From: Planctomycetota bacterium
Lineage (GTDB): Bacteria > Planctomycetota > UBA1135 > GCA-002748355
Reading direction: 5' to 3'
NCBI GenBank assembly: GCA_027021385.1
Contig: JALUUL010000054.1
Location: 51,050 to 115,049, forward strand
DNA length: 64,000 nt
The notes beneath the pieces are model-generated. The model was not told the DNA's origin. It saw only the letters and a list, made by a program, of their open reading frames with translations, and did not search any database. Below are positions 1,841 to 22,756 of the stretch, one piece after another. The first letter of the stretch is position 1, and each line of letters begins with the position of its first letter. Made by a program: the position numbers and the translations under genes.

Positions 1841-2563
1841 ATGTCCGAAATTCCTGCGACAGAGAAGGCGGGCGGGGAGACCCGAACGAGATTGCTCGAT
1901 GCGGCCGAACGGCTCTTCGCGCGACACGGGATCGACGCGACCTCCCTCCGGAAGATCACATCCGAAGCCCATGCGAACCTGGCTGCGGTCAACTATCACT
2001 TCGGTTCCAAGGAGGCTCTGATCCGGGAGGTCTTCCTGCGCCGTCTCCACCCGATGAACGAGGAACGGCTCGCGGCATTGGATCGCCTCGAACGGGAATC
2101 GGGGGAGAAGGGCCCCTCTCTCGAGGAGGTCCTCCGGGCCTTCTATCTCCCCGCCCTCACTCTCTGCAGCGGACTGGAGCGGGAGGGTTCCGACTTCCGC
2201 AGGCTGCTCGCGAGGGTCTGGTCCGAACCCCGGGAACTCCTCCGGCCGATCTTCGCCTCCGAGTTCCGGACCCTGGCCGAACGTTTCCAGGCCGCCCTTG
2301 CGCGTTGCCTCCCCGGAGCCTCCTCCGAGGACCTGCGCTGGGGCATCTTCTTCCTGGTCGGAATCCTGACGCACGGACTCCAGATCCCGAACCTCGATCC
2401 CCAGGATCCCCCCGTCTGCCTGCGTCCCGGCGAGGACGTCGAGGCGACCCTGGCCCGCATGGTCCGCTTCGGAGCGGGCGGCCTGCGCGCTCTGGTCCGG
2501 GAAGACGATGGATGTCCGTTCCGGGAAGAAGGCGGGAAGAGGGAAGGAGGGGACATGCAATGA
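1841..2563 (+). CDS. TetR/AcrR-family transcriptional regulator
   Basis: N-terminal helix-turn-helix TRTRLLDAAERLFARHGIDATSLRKITSEAHANLAAVNYHFGSKEAL. AAGGAG ribosome-binding site upstream. The stop overlaps the next ATG (ATGA). Confidence 0.9.
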   Translation: MSEIPATEKAGGETRTRLLDAAERLFARHGIDATSLRKITSEAHANLAAVNYHFGSKEALIREVFLRRLHPMNEERLAALDRLERESGEKGPSLEEVLRAFYLPALTLCSGLEREGSDFRRLLARVWSEPRELLRPIFASEFRTLAERFQAALARCLPGASSEDLRWGIFFLVGILTHGLQIPNLDPQDPPVCLRPGEDVEATLARMVRFGAGGLRALVREDDGCPFREEGGKREGGDMQ

Positions 2564-4068
2564 GAATCTCCGCAATCCCTCCCGCCTCCAAGGAAGGGGA
2601 GCGCCTCTCCTTCCCCGTCCACCGCCCAATCCTCCTCCTGCTGCTCGCTCCGGCGATCGGCTGCCTCGGCGAAGCCCCCGCCCCCGAAGTCCATCCGGAC
2701 CTGGACATCCCCCCCGCCTGGACCGGAGGCGGAGCCTCTCCGGGGTCCCCGCGCGACGACTGGTGGAAGACCTTCGCGGACCCCGCCCTCGAGAATCTGC
2801 TGGCAGAGGGTCTCCGCCGCAATCACGCCCTCGGGGCCGCGGCGGAGCGCCTGCGGGCCGCCGCCGTCCAGGCACGGATCGCAGGGGCGGATCTCTGGCC
2901 CCAGGTCTCCGGCGCCTTCGACGGCGGAAGAACAAAGCGGGTCTTCGTGGGCTTCCCGATTCCCGGCAGCTCCGGCCCCCTGAAATCCTTCACGAATACT
3001 TACGGGGTCTCCTTGGACCTGACCTGGGAAATCGACCTCTGGGGGAGGATCCGGGCCGGCCGGAATGCCGCGCTCAAGGACTTCGAGGCGAAGAAGGCCG
3101 ATCTCGAGGGAGCGCAGCTCTCCCTGTCCGGTCAGATCGCCAAGGCCTGGTTCGCTCTCCGCGAGGCGACCGCCCAGGTCGAATTGGCCGAACGGACCGC
3201 GGCCAACAACCGCCGCACCGTGGAACTCACGAAGGCGCGCTACGCCTCCGGACGAACCGCCCTCCTCGACCTTGAACTCCTCAAGCAGCGGGCGGCCGAC
3301 TCGCTCTCCGCGGTCTCCTCCGCGAAGAGGGCGGAGGACGCGGCCCGGCGCCAGCTCGAGATCCTGATCGGCAGGTACCCGAAGGGGCTACTCCCCACGG
3401 CCTCCGATCTCCCCCCCCTCCCCCCCCTCCCCCCCGCGGGCATCCCCGCCTCCGTCCTCGACCGAAGACCGGATCTCCGCGCTGCCGCGGCCGAAGTCCT
3501 CGCCGATCTCGCCCGGGAACGGGAAGCCAGGGCCTCCCTCTACCCCAGGATCTCCTTGACGACGGGAATTGGAACGCGGAGCGATGAGCTCGGCGACCTG
3601 ATCGACGGGGACTTCTCGGTCTGGAACCTCGCAGGAAACCTCCTGGCTCCGATCTTCCAAGGAGGACGACTCCGGGCACGGGTCGCCCTTCAGGAATCGG
3701 CCACCCGGGAACGCCTCGAGCGCTTCGCCGACCAGGCGCTCCAGGCCTTCAAGGAGGTCGAGACCGCCCTCGCGGCCGAGGATTTCTTGAAAGCGGAGCG
3801 CGCAGCCCTCGCCAAGAGCCTCGAGGCGAGCGAGCGCGCCTACGACCTCGCGAGGGAAAGGTACCTGTCCGGGCGGACGGACGTTCTCCAGCTCCTGGAC
3901 GCCGAGCGATCGACCTTCGCCGTGAGGAGTCGGCTGCTACGACTGGACCTCCTCGCCCTGACGAACCGCATCGACCTCCATCTCGCGCTCGGGGGGAGCT
4001 TCCCCCGGACCGCTCCTCCCGGAGACCCCGTTTCCGTTCTCCCCCACGAGGAGGAGGAACATGAATAG
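2560..4068 (+). CDS. RND efflux outer-membrane factor lipoprotein (NodT/TolC family)
   Basis: ATG at 2560 lies within ORF 1801..4068. Signal peptide with lipobox LAPAIGC. Two TolC-like repeats (DLWPQVSG..., YPRISLTTGIG..., WNLAGNLLAPIFQGGRL). Confidence 0.88.
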   Translation: MRISAIPPASKEGERLSFPVHRPILLLLLAPAIGCLGEAPAPEVHPDLDIPPAWTGGGASPGSPRDDWWKTFADPALENLLAEGLRRNHALGAAAERLRAAAVQARIAGADLWPQVSGAFDGGRTKRVFVGFPIPGSSGPLKSFTNTYGVSLDLTWEIDLWGRIRAGRNAALKDFEAKKADLEGAQLSLSGQIAKAWFALREATAQVELAERTAANNRRTVELTKARYASGRTALLDLELLKQRAADSLSAVSSAKRAEDAARRQLEILIGRYPKGLLPTASDLPPLPPLPPAGIPASVLDRRPDLRAAAAEVLADLAREREARASLYPRISLTTGIGTRSDELGDLIDGDFSVWNLAGNLLAPIFQGGRLRARVALQESATRERLERFADQALQAFKEVETALAAEDFLKAERAALAKSLEASERAYDLARERYLSGRTDVLQLLDAERSTFAVRSRLLRLDLLALTNRIDLHLALGGSFPRTAPPGDPVSVLPHEEEEHE

Positions 4069-5233
4069 GAAAACCTTGAAGGTCCTGCTCCCGATCCTCG
4101 TCCTCCTCGCGGGAAGCGGCGGGGCCTATGCCCTCGTGGCCTCCAGGAAGGCGCCGCCCAGGCAGCGCCGGAAGGTTCCCCCGCCCCTGGTCAGGATCCA
4201 GACCGTCCACCCCTCGACGCACCGCCTTCTCGTCCGAGCGCAGGGGGAAGTCGTCCCGTCCCGCTCGACGACCCTCAGCGCCGAAGTCGGCGGAAGGATC
4301 CTCGAGGTCTCCCCGAGGGTGAAGAGCGGAATGCTCGTGAAGGAAGGGGAGGTCCTGTTCCGGTTGGACTCCAGGGACTATGAGGCCATTCTCGCGAACC
4401 GCAGGGCCCTTCTGGCCTCGGCGAGGCGCAGCCTGATCGAGATCCGGAAGGAGGCGGAACTCGCCGTCTCCGAGTGGAGGGGTCTCGGTCATGCGGGAGA
4501 CCCCGATCCCCTTCTCGCCAAGGAACCCCAGGTCAAGGAAGCCGAGGCGGCCCTCGCCGCCGCCGAGGCGGCCGTCGAGAAGGCCCGCCTCGACGTGGAG
4601 CGATGCGAGATCCGGTCTCCCTACGAGGCGATCGTCGATCGCCGAGACGCCGATCTCGGGCAGATCGTGGCTCCCGGGGCTCCTCTCGCCGAGATCTTCG
4701 CCCTCGATTCGGCCGAGGTCGTCCTTCCGGTCCGCGACGAGGTTCTGGCCTGGCTCGAACTGGACGCGGCCCTCGCCCCCCCGGAAGAATCGATCACCGG
4801 GCCCGAGGTCGTTCTCACCGCCACCTTCGCCGGAGCCCTCCGGCGGTGGAATGCGAGGATCGTAAGGGTCGAGGGACGCGTGGCCGCGCGTACCCGCATG
4901 GTCCGGCTCGTCGCCGAGGTCCGGAATCCGTTCTCCTACACGGTCCCCCTCCGTCCCGGCCTCTTCGTCCGAGCGGAAATCCGTGGGAAACGCATTTCCG
5001 GCGCCTTTCTCGTCGACCGCGCCGCCCTGATCGACGATTCCTCCCTCTACATCGTGGACCCCGACGGCAGGCTCCGCTCGAGAAAGATCACCGTTCTCAA
5101 GAAGAACCGCGGAACAGTGGTCGTCACCCGGGGCCTCGAGGACGGGGACCGCGTCTGCCTGAGCCGTCTGGACACGGTCGTCGAGGGCATGCAGGTCCGG
5201 ATCGACGATTCCCGCGATGGAGCGGGACGGTGA
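4061..5233 (+). CDS. RND efflux periplasmic adaptor (HlyD/MFP family)
   Basis: N-terminal membrane anchor, a coiled-coil hairpin (EAEAALAAAEAAVEKARLDVERCEIRSPYEAIV), then beta-barrel domains. 8 nt overlap with the upstream gene. GTGA overlap with the pump gene. Confidence 0.88.
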   Translation: MNRKTLKVLLPILVLLAGSGGAYALVASRKAPPRQRRKVPPPLVRIQTVHPSTHRLLVRAQGEVVPSRSTTLSAEVGGRILEVSPRVKSGMLVKEGEVLFRLDSRDYEAILANRRALLASARRSLIEIRKEAELAVSEWRGLGHAGDPDPLLAKEPQVKEAEAALAAAEAAVEKARLDVERCEIRSPYEAIVDRRDADLGQIVAPGAPLAEIFALDSAEVVLPVRDEVLAWLELDAALAPPEESITGPEVVLTATFAGALRRWNARIVRVEGRVAARTRMVRLVAEVRNPFSYTVPLRPGLFVRAEIRGKRISGAFLVDRAALIDDSSLYIVDPDGRLRSRKITVLKKNRGTVVVTRGLEDGDRVCLSRLDTVVEGMQVRIDDSRDGAGR

Positions 5234-8200
5234 AGGGCCTCATCTCCTGGTTCGCGGAGAATACGGTCGCCGCGAACCTCCTGATGGTCATGATCCTGGC
5301 GGGGGGCTTCTTCGCGATGACGAGCCTCCGGCAGGAAGTCGTCCCCGAAGTCGAAACCAACAAGGTCGTCGTCTCCGTTCCCTATCCGGGCGCGACGCCC
5401 TCGGAAATCGAGGAGGCGATCTGCGTCAAGATCGAGGAACAGGTCCAGGGTCTGGAAGGCGTGAAGAGGATCACGTCGAGTTCGAAGGAGAATCTCGGGA
5501 CCGTCACGATCGAGGCCTTGAACGGCACCGACATGACGAGGCTCCTCAGCGACGTGAAGAGCAGGGTCGACGCGATCGACACCTTCCCCAAGGACGCGGA
5601 GGAACCCGTCGTCAAGGAAGTAGAACTCGTCCTGGAGGTCATGAGTCTCGCGCTCACCGGACCCACGGGGGAACGGGATCTCGTCCGCCTGGGAGAGCGC
5701 CTCCGCGACGAGATTTCGAACCTTCCGGGCATCACCAGAGTCGAACTCGTCGGTAAGAGGCCCTGGGAGATCTCGATCGAGGTGTCCGAGGAGGCTTTGC
5801 GGAAACACGGCCTGACCTTCGAAGCCGTGGCCAACGCGGTCCGCCGCGCGAGTCTCGATCTTCCCGGGGGAACGATCCATGCGAAGGCGGGGGAGATTCT
5901 CGTCCGGAGTCTGGGACAGGGGTATTCCGGAGCGGATTTCGAGGCGCTCCCCTTGTTGACACTCGCCGACGGCAGCCGCCTCCTCCTCGGTGAGGTCGCA
6001 AAGGTCGTGGATTCCTTCGCGGAAGTGGACAACGAAGTCTTCTTCGACGGATCCAAGGCCCTCCTGATCAAGGTTTTCCGGGTCGGCGACCAGAGCGCCC
6101 TCGCGATCGCGGAGACGACGAAGGAGTGGATGGAATCGGCGGCCGAACGACTTCCCGAGGGAGTAAGGCTTTCGGTCTGGCACGATGACGCCCGGCTCCT
6201 GGCGGGACGTCTCGGACTGCTCCTCAGGAACGGGAGGAACGGTTTTCTGCTCGTCTTCCTGTGCCTCGCCCTTTTTCTCCGCCTGAGGCTCGCCTTCTGG
6301 GTCAGCTTCGGCATTCCCCTGAGCTTCCTCGGGGCCGTGTGGCTCATGCCCGGACTCGACGTCACGGTCAACATGATCTCCCTCTTCGGGTTCATCGTGG
6401 TCCTGGGAATCATCGTGGACGACGCGATCGTCGTCGGGGAGAACATATTCACCCACCTCCAGAAGGGGGTCCCGATCCGGGAGGCCGTGAAGAAGGGTGC
6501 GATCCAGGTCGCCGTCCCCGTCGTGTTCGCGGTCTTGACGACGATCGCCGCCTTCTCCCCGATGCTCGGCCTCCCCGGAACGATGGGACAGTTCGCGAGA
6601 AACATCCCCCTGGTCGTCGTCGCTTGTCTGGTCTTCTCGCTCATCGAGTCCCTCTTGGTGCTTCCCGCCCATCTCCGGCACCTGAGACAGGAGCATGAAC
6701 CGAAGGGAATCGCCAAGATCTGGTACGGGTTCCAGGGCATCTTCACGAGAGGACTCGAAACCTTCATCGAACGCGTTTACCAGCCCTCCCTGCATTGGGC
6801 CCTCGAGTGGCGGTACCTGACTCTCTCGATCGGGCTGGCGACGGTCCTTTTCTTCGTCGGGCTCGTGGCGGCCGGTTGGCTCAAGTTCAACTTCTTCCCG
6901 AAGATCGATTCCGACAATGTATCCGTCGCTCTGACGATGCCGATGGGGACTCCCAAGCGCAGGACGGAGTCCGTGATCCGCGGAATCGAGGACAAGGTCG
7001 AGATCCTGAAGAAGGAGTTCCCCGGAGCCGTGAAGCACGTCCTGAGCGCGATCGGGGACCAACCCTACCTGCGCCGCCAGATGAGAATCACCGGAGGCGA
7101 CGCGGATGAGTACAGTTCCTCCCCCCAGATCGGAGAAGTGACGCTCGAACTCACCCCCTCGGAGGAACGAAGCGTCTCCAGCAGCGTGCTCGCCTCCCGC
7201 TGGAGGGAGTTGGTGGGCGAGATCCCCGAGGCCGTCGCGGTCTCCTTCAACTCCAACATGATGAACAGCGGAGCCGATCTGAACATCCAGCTTTCCGCCC
7301 CCGACTTCGAAACCCTCCGCAACGGGGCCGAGATCCTCAAGAGAAGACTCGGCGACTACCCCGGCGTCTTCAACCTCGCGGACTCCTTCCGGGTCGGAAA
7401 ACAGGAGATCCGGGTCAGGATCCGCCCTGAGGCCGAAACCCTGGGACTCCGCCAGACGGATCTCGCCAGGCAACTCCGCCAGGCGATCTACGGAGAGGAA
7501 GCGCAACGAGTCCAGCGGGGGAGGGACGACGTCAAGGTCATGGTCCGCTACACGACGGAGGAGCGACAAAGCCTGTCGCTCCTCGACGAGATGAGGATCC
7601 GCACACGGAACGGAGACGAGGTCCCTCTTTCCGTCGTCGCGGAAATCGAAACGAGTCGGGAACTCGCGGAAATCCAGCGATCCGACCGGCAGCGATCCGT
7701 CCAGATCACCGCGGAGGTCGACGACCGCATCGCAAACAGCAACGAGATCCTCGCCGACGTGAAGGCGAAGGTTCTCCCCGGGCTCACCGGCAACTTCCCG
7801 GGAATGACATGGAGCTTCGAAGGGCAACAAAGGGAACAGAGGGATTTCGTCGAGGGCATGAAGAAGCAGGCCATGCTCGCTCTCGTTCTGATCTACATCC
7901 TCCTCGCGATCCCCTTCCGTTCCTACGTGCAGCCGATGATCATCATGAGCGTCATCCCTTTCGGCCTCGTCGGGGCGATCCTCGGCCACCTCCTCCTGGG
8001 ATTCGACCTCACGATGATGTCGCTGATCGGAATCATCGCGCTCGCGGGCGTCGTCGTGAACGACAGCCTCGTCATCGTGGATTTCGTCAACCGCGCGAGG
8101 CGCGGGGGGACGCCTCTCGTCGAAGCCGTGGAGCAATCGGGTGCCTCACGGTTCCGGCCGATCCTCCTCACCTCTCTCACGACCTTCGCGGGACTCCTTC

Positions 8201-8421
8201 CGATGCTCATGGAGCGCAGCCTCCAGGCCAAGTTCCTGATCCCGATGGCCGTCTCCCTCGGCTTCGGCATCATTTTCGCAACCGTTATCACCCTGGTCTT
8301 CGTCCCCTGCTTCTACCTGGTCATCGAGGACGTCCTCGGCATCTTCCGCTCAGAAGCGGGTCCCCCGGCGGATCCCGAAGGCGGGGTCCCCCGCGATCCA
8401 TTCAGGCTCTTTCCTCTGTAG
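5230..8421 (+). CDS. RND inner-membrane efflux pump (AcrB/AcrD/AcrF family)
   Basis: GTG at 5230 in the frame of ORF 4474..8421. VKGLISWFAENTVAANLLMVMILAGG...VSVPYPGATPSEIEE and 12-TM RND architecture with two large periplasmic loops. The upstream 252 codons of the ORF are Arg/Pro-rich shadow sequence. Confidence 0.9.
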   Translation: MKGLISWFAENTVAANLLMVMILAGGFFAMTSLRQEVVPEVETNKVVVSVPYPGATPSEIEEAICVKIEEQVQGLEGVKRITSSSKENLGTVTIEALNGTDMTRLLSDVKSRVDAIDTFPKDAEEPVVKEVELVLEVMSLALTGPTGERDLVRLGERLRDEISNLPGITRVELVGKRPWEISIEVSEEALRKHGLTFEAVANAVRRASLDLPGGTIHAKAGEILVRSLGQGYSGADFEALPLLTLADGSRLLLGEVAKVVDSFAEVDNEVFFDGSKALLIKVFRVGDQSALAIAETTKEWMESAAERLPEGVRLSVWHDDARLLAGRLGLLLRNGRNGFLLVFLCLALFLRLRLAFWVSFGIPLSFLGAVWLMPGLDVTVNMISLFGFIVVLGIIVDDAIVVGENIFTHLQKGVPIREAVKKGAIQVAVPVVFAVLTTIAAFSPMLGLPGTMGQFARNIPLVVVACLVFSLIESLLVLPAHLRHLRQEHEPKGIAKIWYGFQGIFTRGLETFIERVYQPSLHWALEWRYLTLSIGLATVLFFVGLVAAGWLKFNFFPKIDSDNVSVALTMPMGTPKRRTESVIRGIEDKVEILKKEFPGAVKHVLSAIGDQPYLRRQMRITGGDADEYSSSPQIGEVTLELTPSEERSVSSSVLASRWRELVGEIPEAVAVSFNSNMMNSGADLNIQLSAPDFETLRNGAEILKRRLGDYPGVFNLADSFRVGKQEIRVRIRPEAETLGLRQTDLARQLRQAIYGEEAQRVQRGRDDVKVMVRYTTEERQSLSLLDEMRIRTRNGDEVPLSVVAEIETSRELAEIQRSDRQRSVQITAEVDDRIANSNEILADVKAKVLPGLTGNFPGMTWSFEGQQREQRDFVEGMKKQAMLALVLIYILLAIPFRSYVQPMIIMSVIPFGLVGAILGHLLLGFDLTMMSLIGIIALAGVVVNDSLVIVDFVNRARRGGTPLVEAVEQSGASRFRPILLTSLTTFAGLLPMLMERSLQAKFLIPMAVSLGFGIIFATVITLVFVPCFYLVIEDVLGIFRSEAGPPADPEGGVPRDPFRLFPL

Positions 8422-10890
8422 GAAGCCGAGGAAGGCGGGAAGGAAGTTGAACTGCACCCTGGTATCTCCGACGACCTGGTCCTGGATCACCGACAGCTCG
8501 AACATCCAGTCATGGTCTCTCCGCTGGACGACCATGGAGGCGCTGTTCACCGTGTTCCGATCGAAGTCGTAGATCAGGCCGTAGCCGAAACGCCACCGTT
8601 CCCAAAAGGAAAGTCCCGCGCGCAGCGCCCCCTCTCCGTCTTGATCCCTTCCGGAACGCCATTCGACCGCCAGGTCCCCGCCGGGAAAGGGGACGAGGGA
8701 CATCCCGAGATTCCTCGTTCGGAAATCCCCCCGCGCAAAATCCCTCTCCCCCTCGAAAAGGAGCCCCAGGATCTCCGTCGGCCGCCAGATCAACTCGAAA
8801 TAGGTCAGCCCCAGCCGGTTTCCTCCGTTGTCCCGAGCGGCATTCGGATGGAGGCGCTGCACGAGATCCAGCCAGAGGTAGTTCCTCCATCCCCCCTTGC
8901 CGTCCCGCGTCCGGAGCCTCTGGAGGACCCCTAAGTCGATCGCGGACTCCTCGTCGAGCGTGTCGACCTCGTCGAAGGAGAAATAGTCCCCCGGCTCCCG
9001 GTCCACGAGGAAGCGGTGGTAGACCCGCAGGTCGGGGATGATCTCATGCCGAAGTCCGTCGATGCCGAGGGCACGGATTTCGGTCGCGAAGTCCCGGTGG
9101 AAACGGGTCACTGCCCGGATCTCCCCCTCGAAGGCCCTCCGGTTCCCGGACGAGGCTCCGGGAAGATCCGAATACCAGGTATTCCTCGCGGTGAAGGACG
9201 GAATCAGCATCCAGCCCCCGAGCCGGACGGGGGCATGGAGCCGGAGGAGGACGTCGCTCCTCCAGGAGGCCTCTCGACGCGCTCCGGGCGCCCGATCGTC
9301 GAAACGGTTTCGAAGCCTTCCCCCCGCGAGTCCGAGGTCGAGCACGAGAGGCCAGTCCTCGCGGAGTTCGAGAATCGGTTGAGAGAAGACATCGAGCCTT
9401 CCGAGCGGGAGTTCTTCACGGAAGGAGGGGCTCAGCGTCGCATCCTCCGCATAGGAAAAATCCTGGAGATTGAAACGTCCTCTCAAGCCGAAACGGAGGT
9501 TTCCCGCCGCGTGCACGAGATGGACGCTCGTTTCCGGAACCTCGTCCTCCTTGAGCATGGTGGGCCGGAACTCCGGAACGGTCGCGGGATCCGCGGCCTG
9601 GAAGGCTTCGAGATCGAGACGGGTCCGTTCCCCGAGACGGATTCGGGTCCGGAGACGAAGAAACCCCCTCTGTCCGTAGTCGATCGGGCTTCCATCGAGG
9701 TTGCGAGTGATCGACCTGCGGTCACGGCCGGAGTCCTCGAGAAAGAAGCCGTCGACACGGCCTTCGAAGGATCCGGGGAGACGAAAGCCCAGCTCCCCGT
9801 CCAGCGGGATCCCCCTCTTGCGCGCCCACCCGGTCCTGAGGCTCCAATCACCCCGGAAGTTCCTCCCGTTTCCTCCGGCGAGATCGACGATCGAGCCCCC
9901 GAGGTCGTTCCAGCGCCCCCCGAATCGAAGAAAGGCGAACTCCCCCCACGAATCAGATCTTCCGACCCGGATTCCCTGGACCGGAAGCCAGGATTCCTGG
10001 TCCGAATACCAGTGGTAGTCGGGTAGGGGGAGGGAGGGGAGACCTTCGATCTCGACCCGGTTCCCGATTCCTCGGACCTCAAGGACCTCTCCGCGGCGCA
10101 GGATCGAAACCCGCCGGCTCCTCACCCGGTAGTGGGGGGAGCCCGCGTCGCAGGTCGTTACCGAGGCATCCTCGGCGACGAGACGACGACCCTGCTGCAC
10201 GGCCTTTCCGCATTCGAGGACGAGGGCGTTCCTCTCGGTCAGCGGTCCCGATCCGAACGGAAGGCGCAGTTCGACGTCTTCCATCGTCGTCCGCCGGGAA
10301 TCGAAGGACATCGCCAGTCGCGCGGCCTCGAGTTTCCGGATCCCCTTCTCCTCGATGACGACCTTCCCCTCGGCGTAGAGCCCGCGGGCGAGGCGGACGA
10401 GCCGATCCCCGGGTCCCCGCAGGACCTTTCCCCCCTTCCCCTCGGCCAGGGGCAATCCGATCCCGAGATCCATGAGGCCGGCGACGAGGGACCGGGTCCA
10501 GGCTCCTTTCGGGTCCAGGGGGGAGATCCAAGCCCGGCGGGGGAGTTCCCCGGCCTTGGCGGAACCGAGGAAGAGATTCTGGTATTCGTCCCGATCGAGG
10601 GTCAGCACCGCGCGGTCCGCCCTCAGGAAGAGGTCCGCGAAACGCAGCCGGAACCAACCATCGAGGATGACATGGGTCCGGTCCCCCTCCGTCCGGATCC
10701 GGATCGCCCCGTATTCGAGCCGCCCCTCGGGGAACTTCCGCTCCGGCTCCCGCGGAGAGCCGGCCCCCTCCGGTCCCTTCCGGACGGAGCGGTCCGAGGA
10801 TTCGGGCCTAGAGGGAAGGGAACCGGGGACGTCCTGCGCCGCGAGAAAGGCCGGTACCAGGGCCGCGAGGAGGCCCGGAAGGAAGATCAA
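8350..10890 (-). CDS. lptD: LPS-assembly outer-membrane protein LptD (OstA family)
   Basis: Signal-peptide-like IFLPGLLAALVPAFLAAQD. N-terminal OstA-like strands (LRADRAVLTLD, YAEGKVVIEEKG..LEAARLAMSF). LptD-type segment VEIEGLPSLPLPDYHW, then a long beta-barrel region ending in aromatic residues. The proposed TTG start at 10890 overlaps the upstream stop (TTGA). Start is uncertain. Confidence 0.75.
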   Translation of the reverse strand: MIFLPGLLAALVPAFLAAQDVPGSLPSRPESSDRSVRKGPEGAGSPREPERKFPEGRLEYGAIRIRTEGDRTHVILDGWFRLRFADLFLRADRAVLTLDRDEYQNLFLGSAKAGELPRRAWISPLDPKGAWTRSLVAGLMDLGIGLPLAEGKGGKVLRGPGDRLVRLARGLYAEGKVVIEEKGIRKLEAARLAMSFDSRRTTMEDVELRLPFGSGPLTERNALVLECGKAVQQGRRLVAEDASVTTCDAGSPHYRVRSRRVSILRRGEVLEVRGIGNRVEIEGLPSLPLPDYHWYSDQESWLPVQGIRVGRSDSWGEFAFLRFGGRWNDLGGSIVDLAGGNGRNFRGDWSLRTGWARKRGIPLDGELGFRLPGSFEGRVDGFFLEDSGRDRRSITRNLDGSPIDYGQRGFLRLRTRIRLGERTRLDLEAFQAADPATVPEFRPTMLKEDEVPETSVHLVHAAGNLRFGLRGRFNLQDFSYAEDATLSPSFREELPLGRLDVFSQPILELREDWPLVLDLGLAGGRLRNRFDDRAPGARREASWRSDVLLRLHAPVRLGGWMLIPSFTARNTWYSDLPGASSGNRRAFEGEIRAVTRFHRDFATEIRALGIDGLRHEIIPDLRVYHRFLVDREPGDYFSFDEVDTLDEESAIDLGVLQRLRTRDGKGGWRNYLWLDLVQRLHPNAARDNGGNRLGLTYFELIWRPTEILGLLFEGERDFARGDFRTRNLGMSLVPFPGGDLAVEWRSGRDQDGEGALRAGLSFWERWRFGYGLIYDFDRNTVNSASMVVQRRDHDWMFELSVIQDQVVGDTRVQFNFLPAFLGFLQRKEPEWIAGDPAFGIRRGTRF

Positions 10891-13800
10891 GGGAACCTCC
10901 TCGAGATCTTCCCCCCGCGGACGCGGCCGACCCCGCCTCGGATCTCGAGACTGCCGACGTTGACCTCGAGTCCCGGTTCGTTCTCCCAGCGGAGATCCTC
11001 TCCGGCCCAGAACTCGACGCCGCCCGACCTCCCGCCGTGGAGCAGGAGCCATCCCGTCGGCGGTTCGAACTCGATCTCTTCGGCGAAGGCCCCGAGCCCG
11101 TCCCCCCGGGCCTCGACCCCCCCGCCGGCCAGGAGCTTTCGCAGCTCCAACGGGACATCCCAGGCCGAGGGCGCCCGCATCCCTTCCGCCGGCCCGAGGA
11201 GCAGAACGAGGCTCCCCCCGCCGCGGATCTCGAAATCGGCGTCCGGGTCCGAGATCTCGCGGGCGAGGAAGGGACCCGGGACCTCGAGGCGCCCCGAGGC
11301 GATCCTCGACGGCTCTCCCGAGATCTCGAGGCGAAGCCGGACCGTTCCCCTCGGATCGATGCGCAGCTTCCGGCCCCCGCCCCCTTCCAAGAACAGCACC
11401 GGTCTCTTCGACGGGCCTCCGAGCAGGAGGGCGTCCCTGCCCCGGTCCCGGACCAGGAGACGCGCACCCCGCATGCTCAGGACCCCCGTCTCGGCCATCG
11501 CGATCCTCCCCCGGATCACCCTGCCATCCTCGCCAGAAAGCCGGAGAAACGAACCGTCGCTCCAGAGGTCCAGCCGGTCTCCGTGGAAGGACTGGAGAGT
11601 CGCCCCTCCCCGACTCCGGAACTGCAGCGCGACCCCCTTCCTCGCCCGAATCAGGCGTTCCCCGACGATCCTCTTACGGACCCCAGCCGGGAGGGGTCTC
11701 CAGATCCGCGCCAGCATTCCCTCGACCGCCGGGGGAGCGATCCAGGGAAGGACCTCGAGTTCGGCGCATTCGAGGGTCGCCTCCGAGTCTCCGCCGGGCC
11801 AGAAGCCCTCGGCGACGACCCGCCCCTCCGCCCGCAGCCAGGCCTCGACCCCACGGCCCACGACCCCCTCCCGCCCCTCGAAGAGGAACCGCGCCGCACG
11901 GACCCGCGCCTCCCCCCCATCCTTCGAGGGACGGCGTAACACGACGACCGCGGGGACGGACAGGCCCTCTAGGATCCAGGGGCCGTCCCCCGTCCTCGAC
12001 AGCAGCCTCCCCCGCGCCTCGAGACCCCGCTCCGGAACGACGAATCGGAGAGGGCGGCCTCGGAGTTCGAGCCGCAGGCGGTCCTTCGACTCGACGAGGA
12101 CTCCATCTCGGATCCCCTCGACGCTCGTCCGACCCCGTCGGGTCGGCATCGACCAGCGCATTCCGTTTCCCGAACGGGCGTGGAGGGAAAGCCTCGAACC
12201 GGGAGCCGGACCGCCGCCTCGATGCGCCCGCCTGCCGTGCATCAGGATGCGCCCCCGGCCGGAGAGGACCCCCTCTTCGAACCGGATGCGGATCGGACCC
12301 TCGCGGTCCCAGGGTCCGAGGCTTCCGAAGACGGCCTTCGACCCCGGAGGTTCCAGGAAGGCGAATCCCTCCTTTCCGTCGAGACGGTAGGCGGGACGTC
12401 CCGGTTCGCGGTTCGCCTCGACCTCCACCCGACCGCTCGTGAATCCGAACACGGGCTCGAGCCCCTCGAGGCCCTCGACCAGGGACAGGATGACCGCGCT
12501 TTCGCTCCTGAAGTCGGGAATCGCCCCTCCCGCCGCCTGGAACTTCGCCCCCGGCCCGATCGTCAGGATCTCCCCCCCTCCGAACGGGAAGAAGAAGCGG
12601 CGGAAGACCTCCGTCGTGAGGCTTTTCGGGAAGCCGAACAGTTCCGGAAGGCGCGCGGATTCCCGATCCCAATCGACGAAAGCGGCCCCGACGAGCCGGC
12701 CGAGAGCCTCCCCGCCAGCCCCCTCGAGATCGAGGATCGGATCCCCCTCCGCGCGGAGGCGTGAAGGTTTTCCGTCTGAACCGATCGCGACCGCCAGCCG
12801 CCGGGCGCGGAGCGATTGCCCCCCGAACCGCAAACGCATCGGAGAGACCTCGCCGCCCTCCACGAGGAGATCGGTCAGAGCGTGGGGAACGAAGTAGGCC
12901 CCCCGGTCGACCCCCGGCAGACGCCCACGCCGGATCCTCGCCTCGAGCGAGCGGCCGAGGACGTCGAGCGGTTTCGCGCCGAGCCGGAGATCCCGAAGGA
13001 AGCGCCGGGCGCGGAATTCGATTCCGCCCTCGAGCCGCAGGCGCCACTCGTCCACGTCGATCCTGCGGAAGACGAGGGGTCCCCCTCCCCGGAGTTCGAA
13101 GCCCGACCCGAGGTCCCCGGACATCTCGTCCTTCCGATCCCTGAGAACGACATCGGACTCGATCCGGATCCAGGAATTCCCGCCCTCGCCCCCCGACGCC
13201 CCGAGGGAATGCAGGTCCGCGCTCAAGCCCTTACCGTCGAGGAACAAGGGACCATCCTCGAACTTAGCCTCCATGCGGACCGGCTGCGAGGAATCCGGGG
13301 TATGCACCTCGAAACGCTCCTCGCCCGCGTTGACGAGCAGGCGGGAGACGTGGAGACGGATCGGAGGAGTCGCGCCTCCCCTCCCGCCGGAATCCTTTGC
13401 CCGGACGAGGAGCACGACATCCCCGAGATCCATTTCATGGGAACGGTCGAGGGAGCGGTTCCCCGCCTCGTCGATCGCCATCCGCAGATTCGCTCGGGAG
13501 GCCCGGAGTTCGAAACGCAACTTCTCCCGCTCGGTCCCTCGCCCGTGGAACTCCGCGTACAACCCGTCGAGGTCATAGGTCCCGTCTTCCCTCGGCCTCG
13601 AATCCTCCCAGGAAAGGAAATAGAGCCGGCGCCGTTTTCGGGCCTCCCGGTCCTCGACGAAGACCTCGAGATCCCCCTTCCCCCGGCCGCGGACCCCGAC
13701 GGCTCCTCCGAGCCCCGGCCCCGTCTCTTCCCGCTTCCCGGTCTTGACCTTCACCTCCCCGGGACCTTCCGGGATCTCGACCCGTGCACGTCCCTCCCTT

Positions 13801-13898
13801 CCCCCGAACTGGAAGGCCTCCTCCCCGGAAACGATGAAGACCAGCAGGAGGACCCCTCCTCCGAAGAGGAGGAGAAAATGGAGGAGACGACGGATCAC
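10887..13898 (-). CDS. 1003 aa protein with a single N-terminal TM anchor, sitting in the lptC/lptA position. Candidate periplasm-spanning lipid-bridge protein; function not established.
   Basis: GTG start overlaps the kdsC stop (GTGA), and the stop overlaps the lptD start. N-terminus MIRRLLHFLLLFGGGVLLLVFIV is a TM helix. The remainder is beta-strand-like with recurring xLRLEhxG / hRhxADxh motifs. Competing frames are Pro/Arg/Ser shadow ORFs. Confidence 0.6.
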   Translation of the reverse strand: MIRRLLHFLLLFGGGVLLLVFIVSGEEAFQFGGREGRARVEIPEGPGEVKVKTGKREETGPGLGGAVGVRGRGKGDLEVFVEDREARKRRRLYFLSWEDSRPREDGTYDLDGLYAEFHGRGTEREKLRFELRASRANLRMAIDEAGNRSLDRSHEMDLGDVVLLVRAKDSGGRGGATPPIRLHVSRLLVNAGEERFEVHTPDSSQPVRMEAKFEDGPLFLDGKGLSADLHSLGASGGEGGNSWIRIESDVVLRDRKDEMSGDLGSGFELRGGGPLVFRRIDVDEWRLRLEGGIEFRARRFLRDLRLGAKPLDVLGRSLEARIRRGRLPGVDRGAYFVPHALTDLLVEGGEVSPMRLRFGGQSLRARRLAVAIGSDGKPSRLRAEGDPILDLEGAGGEALGRLVGAAFVDWDRESARLPELFGFPKSLTTEVFRRFFFPFGGGEILTIGPGAKFQAAGGAIPDFRSESAVILSLVEGLEGLEPVFGFTSGRVEVEANREPGRPAYRLDGKEGFAFLEPPGSKAVFGSLGPWDREGPIRIRFEEGVLSGRGRILMHGRRAHRGGGPAPGSRLSLHARSGNGMRWSMPTRRGRTSVEGIRDGVLVESKDRLRLELRGRPLRFVVPERGLEARGRLLSRTGDGPWILEGLSVPAVVVLRRPSKDGGEARVRAARFLFEGREGVVGRGVEAWLRAEGRVVAEGFWPGGDSEATLECAELEVLPWIAPPAVEGMLARIWRPLPAGVRKRIVGERLIRARKGVALQFRSRGGATLQSFHGDRLDLWSDGSFLRLSGEDGRVIRGRIAMAETGVLSMRGARLLVRDRGRDALLLGGPSKRPVLFLEGGGGRKLRIDPRGTVRLRLEISGEPSRIASGRLEVPGPFLAREISDPDADFEIRGGGSLVLLLGPAEGMRAPSAWDVPLELRKLLAGGGVEARGDGLGAFAEEIEFEPPTGWLLLHGGRSGGVEFWAGEDLRWENEPGLEVNVGSLEIRGGVGRVRGGKISRRFP

Positions 13899-14485
13899 GA
13901 TCCCTCTCCCGGCCCTCCCGGGCGCCCGCAGGCATCGACGACGGAACCGTAGAGCCCCTTCGCCCGGAGGAGGAGTTCGACGACCTCCCGGACCGCCCCT
14001 CCTCCGGCGGGAGCACGGGTCACGTAGAGGGCGGCTTCCCGGACCTCGGGACGGGCTTGCGGAACCGAAATCGGGGCCCCGACGCGCCTGAGAACCGGAA
14101 GATCGAGCAGATCGTCGCCGACGTAGCAGACCTCGGTCTCGTCGAGTCCGAGGGACTGGAGGATCTCGTCGAGCCGGGCGCTCTTGTCCCGGACTCCGAG
14201 GTGCAGTTCCCGGATCCCGAGTTCCGCGGCGCGGGCTCTCACCGCCGTCGAATCCCGGCCCGAGAGCAAGCCCGTCGCGAACCCCGAACGGCGCCAGTGC
14301 GCGAGACCGCTTCCATCATGCACGTGGAAGACCTTGGACTCCCTCCCCTCCCCATCGAAGAACAACCTCCCGTCGGTCAGGACTCCATCGACGTCGAGGA
14401 GGAGGAGAACAACCTTCGCAAGGACCGCGGCCGCGCCCTCGGGAACCTCTACGGGCTCCGGTATGAACTGGAATCCCTCCCTCAC
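13895..14485 (-). CDS. kdsC: KDO 8-phosphate phosphatase (HAD family)
   Basis: LLLLDVDGVLTDGRLFF...HVHDGSGL...GLLSGRDS...CYVGDDLLDLPVL match the KdsC HAD motifs. Located directly downstream of kdsD. Confidence 0.9.
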   Translation of the reverse strand: MREGFQFIPEPVEVPEGAAAVLAKVVLLLLDVDGVLTDGRLFFDGEGRESKVFHVHDGSGLAHWRRSGFATGLLSGRDSTAVRARAAELGIRELHLGVRDKSARLDEILQSLGLDETEVCYVGDDLLDLPVLRRVGAPISVPQARPEVREAALYVTRAPAGGGAVREVVELLLRAKGLYGSVVDACGRPGGPGEGS

Positions 14486-14494
14486 TTCCCCACC

Positions 14495-15493
14495 TCAGGC
14501 GATCTTGAGTTCGAGGAGATCCTGCACATCGACGAGTCCGATCGCCCGGCCGGCCTCGTCGACGACAGGAATCTGGTCGATGCGGTTCTCGTGCAGCAGG
14601 TTGAAGGCGTCCACCGCCAGTTTGTCATCTCGGATCGTCTTGGGAGAGGCCGTCATGACCTCGTCGATCCTACGATCCAGGAAGCCCTCCTCCCCATGCT
14701 CCAGGCTCCTCCGCAGATCGCCGTCGGTGAAGATCCCGAGCAGGAGGCCCGCCCCGTCCACGACGACCGCCGCCCCGGGACGTCCCGGAGTCTTCGTCAT
14801 GACGACGAGAGCCTCCCGAACGGTCGCCCCGGACCGGATCAAGGGGTTCCGCTCGCCCCGGCGCATGATCTCCCCCACATTCATCAACTTCCGGCCGAGC
14901 GTTCCACCCGGATGGAACCTCGCGAAATCCTCCGGTCCGAAATCGCGGTTCTCCTGGGTGACGAGGGCTAGCGCGTCCCCCAGCGCCAGCATCGCAACCG
15001 TCGAGGCGGAAGGCGCGAGCCCCATCTCCCCGGCCTCGAGGATCGGCCCGAGTTCGAGGACAAGGTCCGAGGCCTGACCGAGCGAGGAGTCGGAAGTCTC
15101 CGTGATCGAGAGGACCTTGATTCCCGCGGCGCGCACGGGGGGCAGGAGATCCAGGAGTTCCTCGGTCTCGCCCGACTTCGAGAGGGCGAAGCACAGGTCC
15201 CCCGCGCAGACTCTCCCGAGATCCCCATGCCGGGCCTCTGCGGGGTGCAGGAAGATCGAGGGGGTCCCCGTGCTGGCCAAGGTGGCCGAGATCTTCCGCC
15301 CGATGAGGCCGGCCTTTCCCATGCCGGTGACGACGACCCGCCCCGGGGTCTCGAGGATCAGCGAGACCGCGTGCGCGAACGGGGCTCCGACCCGCTCCCT
15401 GACCCCCCGAAGGGCCTCGATCTCCCTCTCGAGGATGCGCTTCGCGCTCGCGATGCGGGCGTCTTCACCGGCCTTCCCCATGCCTGGATCCAT
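14495..15493 (-). CDS. kdsD: Arabinose-5-phosphate isomerase (SIS domain plus tandem CBS domains)
   Basis: RVVVTGMGKAGLIGRKISATLASTGTPS...ALSKSGETEE is a SIS domain. The C-terminal CBS pair includes PVVDEAGRAIGLVDVQDL. Confidence 0.92.
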   Translation of the reverse strand: MDPGMGKAGEDARIASAKRILEREIEALRGVRERVGAPFAHAVSLILETPGRVVVTGMGKAGLIGRKISATLASTGTPSIFLHPAEARHGDLGRVCAGDLCFALSKSGETEELLDLLPPVRAAGIKVLSITETSDSSLGQASDLVLELGPILEAGEMGLAPSASTVAMLALGDALALVTQENRDFGPEDFARFHPGGTLGRKLMNVGEIMRRGERNPLIRSGATVREALVVMTKTPGRPGAAVVVDGAGLLLGIFTDGDLRRSLEHGEEGFLDRRIDEVMTASPKTIRDDKLAVDAFNLLHENRIDQIPVVDEAGRAIGLVDVQDLLELKIA

Positions 15494-19661: not shown

Positions 19662-20030
19662 TCAGGCCTCCCGCTTTCCCCCGTTCCGGGCGAGGACCTC
19701 GAGACAGGCCTCGACGAGGGCGAGGGCGTGGGCTCCCGTCCCTCCCAGACCTCCGAGGGAGGCCACGGCTCCCCGCAACCTCCCGAAGGGGGGCCCGGAT
19801 TCCAGCTCGCGACCCTCGTATTCCCGGACCGCGAGGCTCGCGGCGGCGAGCGTGGCCGGACAGGCCTCGGCCCTCCAGCGAAGGGCGGCGCAGCGCCCGC
19901 CCTCGAAGCGGGCCTTCATCCGGAGGCGGTCCCCGCAGACCGGGTCCTCGCGCAGGACCTCGACATCCGCGGGTTCCAGGTCCCCGACGCCTAAGGGTTC
20001 GCGCACGAGCCTGCGGAGGGCCTCCTCCAT
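19662..20030 (-). CDS. NifU/IscU/SufU-like Fe-S scaffold N-terminal-domain protein (divergent)
   Basis: DPVCGDRLRM...EACPATLAAASLA...HALALVEACLEVL gives an IscU-like spacing of cysteine ligands in a 122 aa protein. Confidence 0.6.
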   Translation of the reverse strand: MEEALRRLVREPLGVGDLEPADVEVLREDPVCGDRLRMKARFEGGRCAALRWRAEACPATLAAASLAVREYEGRELESGPPFGRLRGAVASLGGLGGTGAHALALVEACLEVLARNGGKREA

Positions 20031-20043
20031 CCGACCTCGAGCC

Positions 20044-20187
20044 TCAGCGTCCGAAGGCCGGAAGGTCCATGTCGAAGATCGAGGGGGCGCTCCGCTCGAG
20101 CGTCCAGAACTCGTCCTTCAAGATCTCGCAGGAGGCGAGGAGCAAGGGTACGAACAGCAGAAGGACGCGCAGCAGTCGGCGTTTCAT
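20044..20187 (-). CDS. 47 aa predicted lipoprotein, translationally coupled to lysA
   Basis: MKRRLLRVLLLFVPLLLASC has a basic n-region, a hydrophobic core and the lipobox LLASC. Its ATG overlaps the lysA stop (ATGA at 20184-20187). It is the tail of shadow ORF 20044..21597. Confidence 0.5.
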   Translation of the reverse strand: MKRRLLRVLLLFVPLLLASCEILKDEFWTLERSAPSIFDMDLPAFGR

Positions 20188-21509
20188 GTTCCGGCCTCCC
20201 GATTCCGGAGATCCTCGAGGATCTCCCTCCACGGAGGATCGCCCGCGGGCTTTCGGAGATCCAGCCCCTCGTCTCCTTCGTTCCGCCAGAGATCCCTCGG
20301 ATCCTCGCGACGGCGGATCAGCCGGGCCGTCCCGTTGGAGACGAGGACCTCGGCCGGACGCGGCCGCGAGTTGTAATCGCTCGACATCGAGAACCCGTAG
20401 GCGCCGGCCCCGAGGACGGCATAGAGGGTCCCGGGCTCCGACTCGGGAAGCGAGCGGTCCCTCCCGAGGAAGTCCCCGCTCTCGCAGACCGGTCCGACGA
20501 CATCGACCCGCCGCGGCACCCCTCCTTCCGGAGACCGCAGGGGGACGATCTCGTGGGTCGCCCCGTAGAGGGCGGGGCGGATCAGGTCGTTCATCCCTCC
20601 GTCCACGATCAGGAAGTCCTTCCCGTGTCCGGGCTTCCATTCGAGAGCTCGCACGAGCAGGAGGCCGGCGTCCCCCAGGAGGTATCGCCCCGGTTCGCAA
20701 AGGAGGCGGAGCCCGGCGGGCCCCAGGATCCGACGAAGGCCCTCGCCGAGGGGATCGAGGTCCATCGGTTCGGCGAAGGGGCCCCGGATGCCGAATCCGC
20801 CGCCGAGGTCGTAGCATTCGAGACCGAGCTTCTTGCAGGCCTTCAGATCGCACCAATCGAGCACCCGGCGGAGAGCCTCGAGATAGGGTTCGGAATCCAG
20901 GATCAACGAACCCAGGTGGACGTGGAAGGCGTGCAGCCTCAGGGAGGTTCCGGAAGAGATGACGCGGAGGCAATTCTCGGCCCGATCCGGATTGAGTCCG
21001 AACTTGTCCTCCTTCCTTCCGGTCGCGATGTAGTCGTGGGTCGCGGCCCCGACGTCGGGGTTCAAGCGGAGCGCCACGTCGACCCGCCGGCCCGCTCTCG
21101 AGGCGAGGAAGGCGAGACGGTCCAGCTCCGCCTCGCTTTCGACGACGAAGAGTCCGATCCCGGCCTCGAGACCCAGCTCGAGTTCCCAGTCCTGCTTCCC
21201 GACCCCGGCGAAGACCATGTCGGCGGGGCGCCCGCCCGCAGCCAGGGCCCGCAGGAGTTCCCCGCCGCTGACCAGATCGAACCCCGCGCCCTCCCGCGCG
21301 AGGAGGGACAGAAGGGCCCCGTTGGAGTTCGCCTTGACCGCGTAGCGGATCCCGGGATCCAGCCCGTCGAAGGACCGGCGGATCCGGTCGAGACGCTCCA
21401 GGATCGAGTCCGTGTCGTAGACGTAGACCGGCGTCCCGACCGCCGCGGCGATCTCCTCGAGCGGAACCCCCCCCGCCACAAGCCGGTCGTCTCGATACTC
21501 GATGCTCAT
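20184..21509 (-). CDS. lysA: Diaminopimelate decarboxylase
   Basis: MSIEYRD..GTPVYVYD...YAVKANSN...HVHLGS...DLGGGFGI...EPGRYL...CESGD...GAYGFSMSSDYNSRPRPAEV. The start at M14 of the ORF overlaps the upstream stop (ATGA). Confidence 0.93.
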   Translation of the reverse strand: MSIEYRDDRLVAGGVPLEEIAAAVGTPVYVYDTDSILERLDRIRRSFDGLDPGIRYAVKANSNGALLSLLAREGAGFDLVSGGELLRALAAGGRPADMVFAGVGKQDWELELGLEAGIGLFVVESEAELDRLAFLASRAGRRVDVALRLNPDVGAATHDYIATGRKEDKFGLNPDRAENCLRVISSGTSLRLHAFHVHLGSLILDSEPYLEALRRVLDWCDLKACKKLGLECYDLGGGFGIRGPFAEPMDLDPLGEGLRRILGPAGLRLLCEPGRYLLGDAGLLLVRALEWKPGHGKDFLIVDGGMNDLIRPALYGATHEIVPLRSPEGGVPRRVDVVGPVCESGDFLGRDRSLPESEPGTLYAVLGAGAYGFSMSSDYNSRPRPAEVLVSNGTARLIRRREDPRDLWRNEGDEGLDLRKPAGDPPWREILEDLRNREAGT

Positions 21510-22756
21510 CGCGCGCGGCGCCGCTCCTTCCCGGGGACCGCTCCGCACAGCCCCCGGTAGAGGGCGAGGAGTCGGCCGGCGATCCTGGCCGGATCATGCC
21601 GGAGGCGAAGGGTCCGTTGAAGGGCCGGAGGGACCTCCGGGGCCCGGAGGCAGGCCTCGGCCAGATCCTCCCCGAGTCGATCCTCGCGCCCCGGGGGAAC
21701 GAGCGTGACCCCCGGGCCCTCGAGATCGACGAGACCCGGAACCCTCCGGCCGACGACGGGGATCCCGCGCATCAGGGCCTCGACCGCGGCCAGCGGAAGG
21801 CCCTCCCGCCGCGAGGGAAGGACGCAGACATCCGCCGCCGGGAGCAGGTCCGGAGCCCCGGGGTCGGGACCTGGAAAGGCGAGAGGAAGCCCCTCGGCCG
21901 CGGCCTGCATCCGGCCCTCGAGAGGTCCCGCGCCGAAGGCGAGCGCGCGGACCTCGATCCCCCGATCGAGGAGGGCCCGTAGGCAGTCGACGAAGAGGAG
22001 GGGGGCCTTGATTTCGACGAAGCGCCCGAGAAAGACCGGCACGAAGGCCCGCTCGGGGAGGCCGAGCCTGCGGCGGAGAGCGCGGCGGAGCCCGCTCCCC
22101 GGACCGGGGCTCCGGTCCGGAGCCCCCGCGCCGGCCCCTCCCTCCCCGTGGAAGAGAATCCGATCCGGGGCCGGAACCGCGGGAGGAAGGACCTCGACAC
22201 GGCCCGGGCCGAGGAGCCCCAGGGCCCGGAGTTCGCGCCGGCAGCTCTCCGAGACGCAGCAGACGAGGTCCCGTCGTCTCTTCAATCGGCGCTCACCGGC
22301 GCGGAGCAGGGCGGAAGCCGTGGGATTCCCATACCCCTCGAAGACGTGCCCGTGCCAGTGGTGCACGCGCGCCGCGCGCTCCGGGCCCCGAGGGAGGAGC
22401 GCGGCGATCAGACCGGCCTTCCAGGTATGGGAGTGGAGGATCCGCGGGCGGAAGCTTCGGACGAGTCGGGACAGGATCCAAAGCGCGCGCAGATCCCCTC
22501 CCGGTCGCGGGGTCCTTCCGAGACAGGGGAGCCGGACCCTTCCCGAGGCCTCCGGTCCCCGCCGCAGGGCCTCCTCGATCCCGAGGATCTCATGCCCGGT
22601 GTCGAGGGCGGTCTCGCCCTCTTCGAGGAGGCCGGAGACGAGGAGTTCGCGCACGCCTCTCCGCTCGAGTTCGGGCCGGAGAGCGCGGAGCTGCCGGGCG
22701 GGGCCCCCGAGGTTGCAACGCCCGAGGATGCGCAGGACCCGGAGGGGTTCAGGCAC
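21506..22756 (-). CDS. Glycosyltransferase, GT4-like (GT-B fold)
   Basis: C-terminal EGLPLAAVEALMRGIPVVG (E-x7-E-type motif) and N-terminal HSHTWKAGL. Flanked by AsnB-like and epimerase genes. Confidence 0.8.
   Translation of the reverse strand: MPEPLRVLRILGRCNLGGPARQLRALRPELERRGVRELLVSGLLEEGETALDTGHEILGIEEALRRGPEASGRVRLPCLGRTPRPGGDLRALWILSRLVRSFRPRILHSHTWKAGLIAALLPRGPERAARVHHWHGHVFEGYGNPTASALLRAGERRLKRRRDLVCCVSESCRRELRALGLLGPGRVEVLPPAVPAPDRILFHGEGGAGAGAPDRSPGPGSGLRRALRRRLGLPERAFVPVFLGRFVEIKAPLLFVDCLRALLDRGIEVRALAFGAGPLEGRMQAAAEGLPLAFPGPDPGAPDLLPAADVCVLPSRREGLPLAAVEALMRGIPVVGRRVPGLVDLEGPGVTLVPPGREDRLGEDLAEACLRAPEVPPALQRTLRLRHDPARIAGRLLALYRGLCGAVPGKERRRAR

Follow-up and report, generated by a model that had tools for sequence, protein, structure and literature searches.

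The closest described counterparts of the proteins considered here belong to the lipopolysaccharide (LPS) transport pathway, Lpt. LptA, a small and soluble protein of 16 strands, bridges by head-to-tail association, and the number of units that make up the bridge is still debated. In this work we describe a locus from a Planctomycetota bacterium (NCBI GenBank assembly GCA_027021385.1, contig JALUUL010000054.1, positions 51,050 to 115,049 of the forward strand; a stretch of 64,000 nucleotides (nt), hereafter the window) in which the bridge may take a different form. A tightly packed block on the minus strand encodes, from 5' to 3', kdsD, kdsC, a 1003-amino-acid (aa) protein that we call X, and an 846-aa protein that we call Y. 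We incline, with moderate confidence, to the reading that X serves this Planctomycetota lineage as a periplasmic LPS bridge of LptC-LptA type that consists of a single polypeptide. This reading is partly supported, by fold matches and a strongly conserved gene context and not by sequence. The preliminary description of this DNA had proposed an OstA/LptC/LptA-like bridge in the slot of lptC and lptA; the fold of X, the LptD fold of Y and the conserved gene order speak for that proposal, but no significant sequence similarity was found to go with them.

According to homology surveys, Planctomycetes have a "largely reduced" Lpt system (PMC8871954), and planctomycete LptD is very divergent and barely detectable by BLAST (PMC3422733). 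For both reasons, Lpt parts that escape recognition are to be expected in Planctomycetota. In the literature covered, which is incomplete, we found no paper on giant or fused forms of LptC/LptA from Planctomycetota, and sequences identical to X and Y that are present in public collections are all labelled "hypothetical protein".

Predicted folds and conserved pairing of X and Y

By its modelled fold, though not by its sequence, Y is a full-length LptD. It gave no match in Pfam (LptD/LptD_N), in NCBIfam or among PDB sequences, which agrees with the earlier report of a barely detectable planctomycete LptD (PMC3422733), and none of 11 homologues (822-839 aa, 32-50% identity) carries a precomputed Pfam domain; one of these proteins comes from a metagenome-assembled genome (MAG) entered at NCBI as "Planctomycetota bacterium". 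The AlphaFold model of Y, built from ten sequences (predicted local distance difference test, pLDDT, 67), retrieved LptD structures as all of its top 38 Foldseek matches, with a best E of 1.4e-28. Against 4q35_A the template modelling (TM) scores were 0.52/0.56 over 862 columns, and the barrel compared with barrel-only LptD structures gave target-normalised TM-scores of 0.60-0.63. The N-terminus of Y resembles a signal peptide (MIFLPGLLAALVPAFLAAQ), and its C-terminus reads ...RGTRF.

The model of X, generated by AlphaFold from an 11-sequence alignment, is of medium confidence (pLDDT 70, predicted TM-score 0.56). It is almost entirely beta, with ~67 strands (assigned by DSSP) in three blocks that are separated by two short helical inserts. 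Among PDB structures, Foldseek matched it to LptC of the LptB2FGC complex (6mit_C) with a probability of 1.00, a target-normalised TM-score of 0.58, a root-mean-square deviation (rmsd) of 4.3 A over 189 columns and an E of 0.037, and to LptA (2r19_A) with a probability of 1.00, a TM-score of 0.62 and an rmsd of 3.1 A over 131 columns. Values for the LptA chains of 2r1a were similar, and LptD chains were matched with probabilities of 0.96-0.99. By strand count (67 strands against the 16 of one LptA) the modelled X corresponds to roughly four LptA equivalents, and a rod of two sheets with ~0.48 nm per strand would be roughly 16 nm long, a figure derived from the strand count. The preliminary description had put the protein at roughly five times the normal length; this is so in comparison with one LptC, but at about four LptA equivalents, which is comparable to one LptC joined by a few LptA units, X would be a covalent bridge of fixed length, fused rather than necessarily longer than the LptC-LptA(n) assembly of Escherichia coli.

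Conservation of gene order is the other main support for the bridge. A scan of GTDB species genomes with the Y alignment returned 12 loci, all from Planctomycetota MAGs (one labelled Phycisphaerales and one Brocadiaceae), while a metagenome scan with the same alignment returned 19 loci and extra loci were reached through exact-protein look-ups; X homologues within them were detected by hidden Markov model searches of six-frame open reading frames (ORFs). Wherever a locus includes upstream DNA, an X homologue lies directly upstream of Y; such loci number ~26, all distinct, and come from Planctomycetota MAGs and from metagenomes. The ~25 homologues found are 950-1063 aa long. Directly upstream of X, in turn, are kdsD and kdsC, the sole exception being locus L003, where only kdsD is present. 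The question raised beforehand, whether orthologues keep the kdsC-X-lptD order, can thus be answered in the affirmative across these loci, with L003 excepted. A more distant LptD-like protein (P0029, 26% identity) has no X upstream, so that the X-Y pair either marks a sub-lineage or X is elsewhere too divergent to be detected.

If X is the single-chain bridge, its N-terminal helix would keep it in the inner membrane, as in LptC, and would be followed by the ~75-residue linker and then by ~900 residues of LptC/LptA-type beta-jellyroll sheet. LPS, the presumed cargo, could be loaded at the N-terminal edge of X by an LptB2FG-type extractor encoded elsewhere, slide through the hydrophobic interior of the protein, and pass from its C-terminal edge in block 3 to the N-terminal jellyroll of the translationally coupled Y, onto which that edge would dock. 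X would thereby stand in for LptC plus the LptA oligomer.

The pattern of conservation, taken from a 19-sequence alignment, sets the N-terminal end and the length of X apart. Nearly every invariant residue is a glycine. Conservation is highest in the N-terminal helix, where mean pairwise identity reaches 46% (20-28% in the other segments) and the BLOSUM window score is 1.78; the helix bears a central G-x-G/GGG motif and is followed by a conserved small-x-G-acidic motif. Residues ~91-165, comprising the first beta stretch, rank second. High conservation of the helix and of this first stretch fits specific contacts at the inner-membrane end. Family members otherwise share only ~25% identity and nevertheless measure 1003±37 aa, with three blocks of 315±14, 286±15 and 253±13 aa that each vary by just ~5%, and inserts of 24±3 and 26±2 aa. 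A more tentative proposal, to which we give a little less credence than to the bridge itself, is that the whole LPS bridge of LptC and LptA oligomer has been replaced by one tethered polypeptide in which length, not sequence, is under selection, so that X would act as an encoded ruler between the membranes and account for part of the reportedly missing Lpt machinery. That X is a natural LPS bridge of fixed stoichiometry and a length-conserved "ruler" is plausible on evidence that is all computational and draws on a medium-confidence model.

The linker (residues 24-98) deserves separate mention: pairwise identity within it is 24%, yet its length is held at 73±4 aa across the 19 homologues, which is unexpected for a simple disordered tether.

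Recurring short motifs had also been pointed out in X, and these are indeed present and enriched, with five occurrences of [RK]L[RK][LF] where 0.45 would be expected and none of 2000 composition shuffles reaching five. The motif residues vary among homologues, however, where the alternation of polar and hydrophobic residues alone is kept. We read the RLRLE-type motifs from the sequence as Arg/Leu-rich amphipathic strands and not as repeat units, and reject them as evidence for repeats or for multiple copies. Profile-profile comparison (hhalign) revealed no convincing internal repeats, segment matches being overlaps that arise from the segmentation, with the sole exception of a weak similarity between blocks 2 and 3 (probability 43%, E 2.5e-4).

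Sequence searches and alternative readings

Several observations weigh against the bridge. The first concerns sequence. X has no match in Pfam or NCBIfam, and phmmer and profile searches of PDB sequences returned only noise. When 5.8 billion proteins were searched through a word index, either with X or with its alignment, X was the only protein returned, and an exhaustive phmmer search of 1.84 billion cluster representatives yielded ~14 true relatives, nine of them full-length (950-1063 aa, 25-30% identity) and the remainder fragments; further homologues came from the Y-seeded locus searches. Across the ~29 X-family sequences scanned against Pfam, there was no significant similarity to PF03968, PF06835 or any other family, so the OstA, LptC or LptA relationship that the preliminary description had proposed to look for is not seen at this level. 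The best PF03968 (OstA_N, LptD_N) score was reached by residues 579-643 of one homologue, P0010 (E 0.073, 13.7 bits against a cut-off of 20.4), and the sole PF06835 (LptC) match by residues 88-135 of the homologue in locus L016 (E 0.27, 11.3 bits against a cut-off of 21); X itself gave no PF06835 match at E up to 1. Comparison by hhalign of the X-family profile, whole or in blocks, with E. coli LptA, E. coli LptC and the N-terminal domain of Y gave nothing significant (probability below 1% for E. coli LptA); PDB LptA sequences are too few and too alike for a useful profile.

The second concerns structure. The Foldseek E-values of X for LptA and LptC are marginal (0.04-0.06), and its best E-values belong to teneurin/Rhs shells, albeit at low probability. 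The helix of X is joined to the jellyroll by a ~75-residue linker that has no counterpart in LptC. The third concerns the remainder of the pathway. No recognisable lptA, lptB, lptC, lptF or lptG occurs among the candidate ORFs scanned across the window, or in the adjoining DNA of the source contig, covered for ~9 kb past the low-coordinate end of the window and for ~8 kb past the high-coordinate end. This bears out the earlier statement that the block has no separate lptC, lptA or lptB, and leaves ~81 kb of contig in which no LptB, LptF or LptG was found. In ~575 kb of related loci, phmmer searches with E. coli LptF, LptG, LptC and LptA likewise found nothing, and the ATP-binding cassette (ABC) matches there are ABC-F proteins.

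The alternative that survives best, though we consider it unlikely, is that X is a secreted, soluble giant LptA whose helix is a cleaved signal peptide, with a separate LptC that has escaped recognition linking LptB2FG to X; its part in bridging LPS would not otherwise change. The hydrophobic N-terminal segment noted in the preliminary description is confirmed, and residues 2-23 form a helix in the model; it may be a transmembrane anchor or, given the small-x-G motif, a signal peptide. In most homologues, [AVI]-x-G and then acidic residues follow the hydrophobic stretch, a pattern compatible with a signal peptidase I site that also counts against an anchored bridge; E. coli LptA has a cleaved signal peptide; and the low-confidence segment that follows the helix would, again, be foreign to LptC. 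Other features argue for an anchor. The hydrophobic stretch spans ~19-21 residues and, lacking a polar c-region, extends as far as the putative -3 position; at 46% identity and with its G-x-G/GGG motif it is better conserved than any other part of X, which would be unusual among signal peptides; and in two homologues cleavage is blocked by a Pro at +1. There is also no small LptC-like gene in any of the loci, though such a gene might be undetectable.

We regard as improbable the suggestion, put forward earlier as the alternative to an Lpt bridge, that X is a bulk lipid conduit like AsmA, TamB or YhdP, that is, an inner-membrane-anchored beta-taco for phospholipid or another lipid that merely adjoins lptD. 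The layout is the same, with ~900 residues of beta structure after an N-terminal helix, and the size is close to that of TamB and YhdP; the highest query-normalised TM-scores of X include the repeating beta-groove (RBG) protein LPD-3 (0.17) and ApoB100 (0.15-0.16, at a probability of 0.63-0.66). However, AsmA, AsmA_2, DUF490/TamB, DUF748 and DUF3971 gave no match at E up to 1-5 in X and the scanned family. The Foldseek probability of LPD-3 (9cap_A), the sole structure related to the beta-taco among the top 50 matches, is 0.25 against 0.96-1.00 for LptC, LptA and LptD, and no TamB or YhdP entry stands among those 50. X furthermore lacks nearly all of the helices that punctuate RBG units, its invariant partner is an LptD-type barrel and not an Omp85 protein (TamA/BamA), and the block starts with Kdo-synthesis genes. 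The conduit is therefore disfavoured by the absence of a profile match, by the weak fold match and by the LptD-type partner.

Equally doubtful in our judgement is a non-conducting role, in which X would assist LptD in the periplasm as an assembly factor, as a tether or spacer that sets the position of the translocon with respect to the inner membrane or the wall, or as a functional substitute for LptE. Strict pairing and translational coupling with Y would suit such a role, as would the conserved length, which is equally fitting for a spacer, and no LptE-like gene was recognised near Y. The fold matches of X, however, are the lipid-carrying jellyroll proteins of the pathway and not LptE, its gene sits in the position of lptC and lptA, and ~900 residues of jellyroll-type sheet would be superfluous for a pure spacer.

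A teneurin/Rhs shell can be set aside, given probabilities of 0.12-0.38, TM-scores of ~0.06 and no RHS/YD Pfam match. Separately, residues 576-640 of X (window positions 11979-12173) collected repeat-summed phmmer matches to eukaryote-type immunoglobulin (Ig) I-set repeat proteins (E 9e-11 to 9e-6) and weak PDB matches to obscurin Ig domains. An Ig-like domain was rejected here, the matches being weak and summed over repeats and X having no Ig match in Pfam; they probably reflect chance beta-strand similarity multiplied by repeat number.

Gene block and neighbourhood

The features of the locus are collected in the table. GC content is ~67% across the window, and X has coding-type composition over its entire length (GC of 0.83 at third and 0.52 at second codon positions). 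In another public assembly of the same contig, independent gene calls gave exactly 1003 aa for X and 846 aa for Y. The single long ORF described earlier, following kdsD and kdsC and preceding an lptD-like gene, is thus confirmed by the reading frame, its composition and the independent calls. So too are the start/stop overlaps, which both read as had been stated: at the kdsC/X junction (GGATCGTGATCCGT) the stop TGA of kdsC lies on the start GTG of X in a 4-nt GTGA overlap, and at the X/Y junction (TTCCCTTGATCTTC) the stop TGA of X lies on the start TTG of Y in a 4-nt TTGA overlap. A GGAGG-like, purine-rich stretch resembling a ribosome-binding site precedes both starts.

Table. Features of the kdsD-kdsC-X-Y block and of kdsA, in window coordinates
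Feature	Coordinates	Strand	Basis
kdsD (arabinose-5-phosphate isomerase), heads the conserved block	14495..15493	-	TIGR00393 KpsF/GutQ E 3.3e-82; SIS and CBS domains
kdsC (Kdo-8-phosphate phosphatase)	13895..14485	-	TIGR01670 E 1.9e-42
X, 1003-aa all-beta protein, candidate single-chain LptC/LptA-type bridge	10887..13898	-	GTG start; stop codon 10887-10889
X residues 2-23, N-terminal hydrophobic helix (anchor or signal peptide)	13830..13895	-	modelled helix
X residues 24-98, low-confidence linker	13605..13829	-	pLDDT 25-40
X residues 99-415, beta block 1, 23 strands	12654..13604	-	DSSP of model
X residues 416-442, short helical/low-confidence insert between blocks 1 and 2	12573..12653	-	helices 417-420, 431-436; pLDDT <50 at 414-440
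X residues 443-720, beta block 2, 23 strands	11739..12572	-	DSSP of model
X residues 721-748, helical insert between blocks 2 and 3	11655..11738	-	helices 723-732, 738-745
X residues 749-1003, beta block 3, 21 strands (beta to 995)	10890..11654	-	DSSP; pLDDT mostly 80-92
Y, 846-aa divergent LptD	8350..10890	-	TTG start; fold match
Y residues 57-326, predicted periplasmic beta-jellyroll, 15 strands, with helical low-confidence insertion 100-166	9913..10722	-	DSSP; alignment to LptD
Y residues 346-818, predicted outer-membrane beta-barrel, ~26 strand elements	8437..9855	-	DSSP of Y model
kdsA (Kdo-8-phosphate synthase), 272 aa	898..1716	+	PF00793 DAHP_synth_1 E 2.6e-64

Between kdsA and the kdsD-kdsC-X-lptD block lies an efflux operon on the plus strand (~1841-8421) of TetR, outer membrane factor, membrane fusion protein and resistance-nodulation-division (RND) genes. 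The last gene of that operon, for the RND efflux pump, is convergent with Y on the minus strand, and the two genes overlap at their 3' ends by 72 nt (8350-8421). Since kdsA stands beyond the efflux operon, ~6.6 kb from the block and on the opposite strand, the Kdo (3-deoxy-D-manno-octulosonate) genes are split around an inserted or unrelated operon. A YegS/DAGK-like gene near kdsA extends off the start of the window. HEAT-repeat proteins are frequent in the window (29650-31278 and 47263-49359, both on the minus strand), and in loci L001, L003 and L017 they are likewise encoded a few kb downstream of X and Y.

In the related loci, three further neighbours were observed downstream of Y. A helical protein of 229-242 aa with no Pfam match follows Y on the same strand in L001 (15444-16172), L017 (12542-13231), L002, L005 and L006; it was rejected as a candidate LptE, being helical and devoid of a signal peptide, confined to the closest subclade and not present in the window. 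An ABC ATPase ORF of ~530-580 aa recurs ~2-5 kb downstream of Y on the opposite strand (L007-L016, L025-L028, L032-L034) and resembles LptB (E ~1e-29); it too was rejected, the ABC_tran-Xtn-ABC_tran arrangement being the ABC-F architecture where annotated (L018). In L018, a gene for an MlaE-ABC ATPase fusion and an MlaD gene (20005-22520) lie 8-10 kb downstream of the LptD-like gene and constitute a second envelope-lipid transport system in the neighbourhood.

Comparison with known Lpt and bridge proteins

Our analyses give names to two conserved "hypothetical proteins" of Planctomycetota, a divergent LptD and its partner, both of which are missed by Pfam and NCBIfam, and their escape from these collections helps to explain why Lpt looks "reduced" in the phylum. 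They also illustrate that Lpt components can diverge past sequence recognition with fold and gene order kept. The number of LptA units per bridge, and how bridge length is matched to the periplasm, are unsettled in model organisms; a one-chain bridge with fixed stoichiometry, should X prove to be one, would make this question directly testable and would provide a stable natural object for structural work.

Compared with the LptD proteins of E. coli, Shigella, Klebsiella and Neisseria, Y shows the same full-length fold in its model (E 1e-22 to 1e-28, TM-scores up to 0.56), and likewise has an N-terminal jellyroll, a ~26-strand barrel, a putative signal peptide and a C-terminal aromatic residue. 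It differs by a ~65-residue helical insertion in the N-terminal domain, by having no Pfam match and by the lack of a recognisable LptE nearby.

With AsmA-like proteins (TamB, YhdP, YdbH) and with bridges of the RBG/VPS13 type, X shares a putative inner-membrane anchor and a long all-beta domain predicted to span the periplasm, a similar size and the concept of a one-polypeptide bridge. It differs from them in having no family match, a weak fold match, an LptD-type partner in place of Omp85, and a Kdo/LPS context. Multi-domain OstA-like proteins, which would likewise string several OstA-type jellyrolls along one chain, are annotated in other phyla, where PF03968 or PF13100 recognises them, whereas X is recognised by neither; the literature covered yielded no paper on them.

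The likeness is closest to LptC and LptA themselves. Like LptC (PF06835; 191 aa in E. coli), X occupies the position after kdsD-kdsC and has a single N-terminal hydrophobic helix, then acidic residues, and a predicted jellyroll fold; it is five times longer, has a 75-residue linker between helix and beta structure, and gives no significant PF06835 match. With LptA/OstA_N (PF03968; 185 aa in E. coli; LptH in Pseudomonas aeruginosa) it shares the jellyroll fold, a presumed bridge role and the slot upstream of the translocon gene. Where LptA is small and oligomerises, however, X is a single chain of 1003 aa that carries a hydrophobic helix at its N-terminus and in which about four units would be covalently joined at a fixed length, and it has no significant PF03968 match. 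As X belongs by sequence to neither LptC nor LptA and is not a small oligomerising protein, we treat it as a candidate variant of the Lpt bridge that stands outside both Pfam families.

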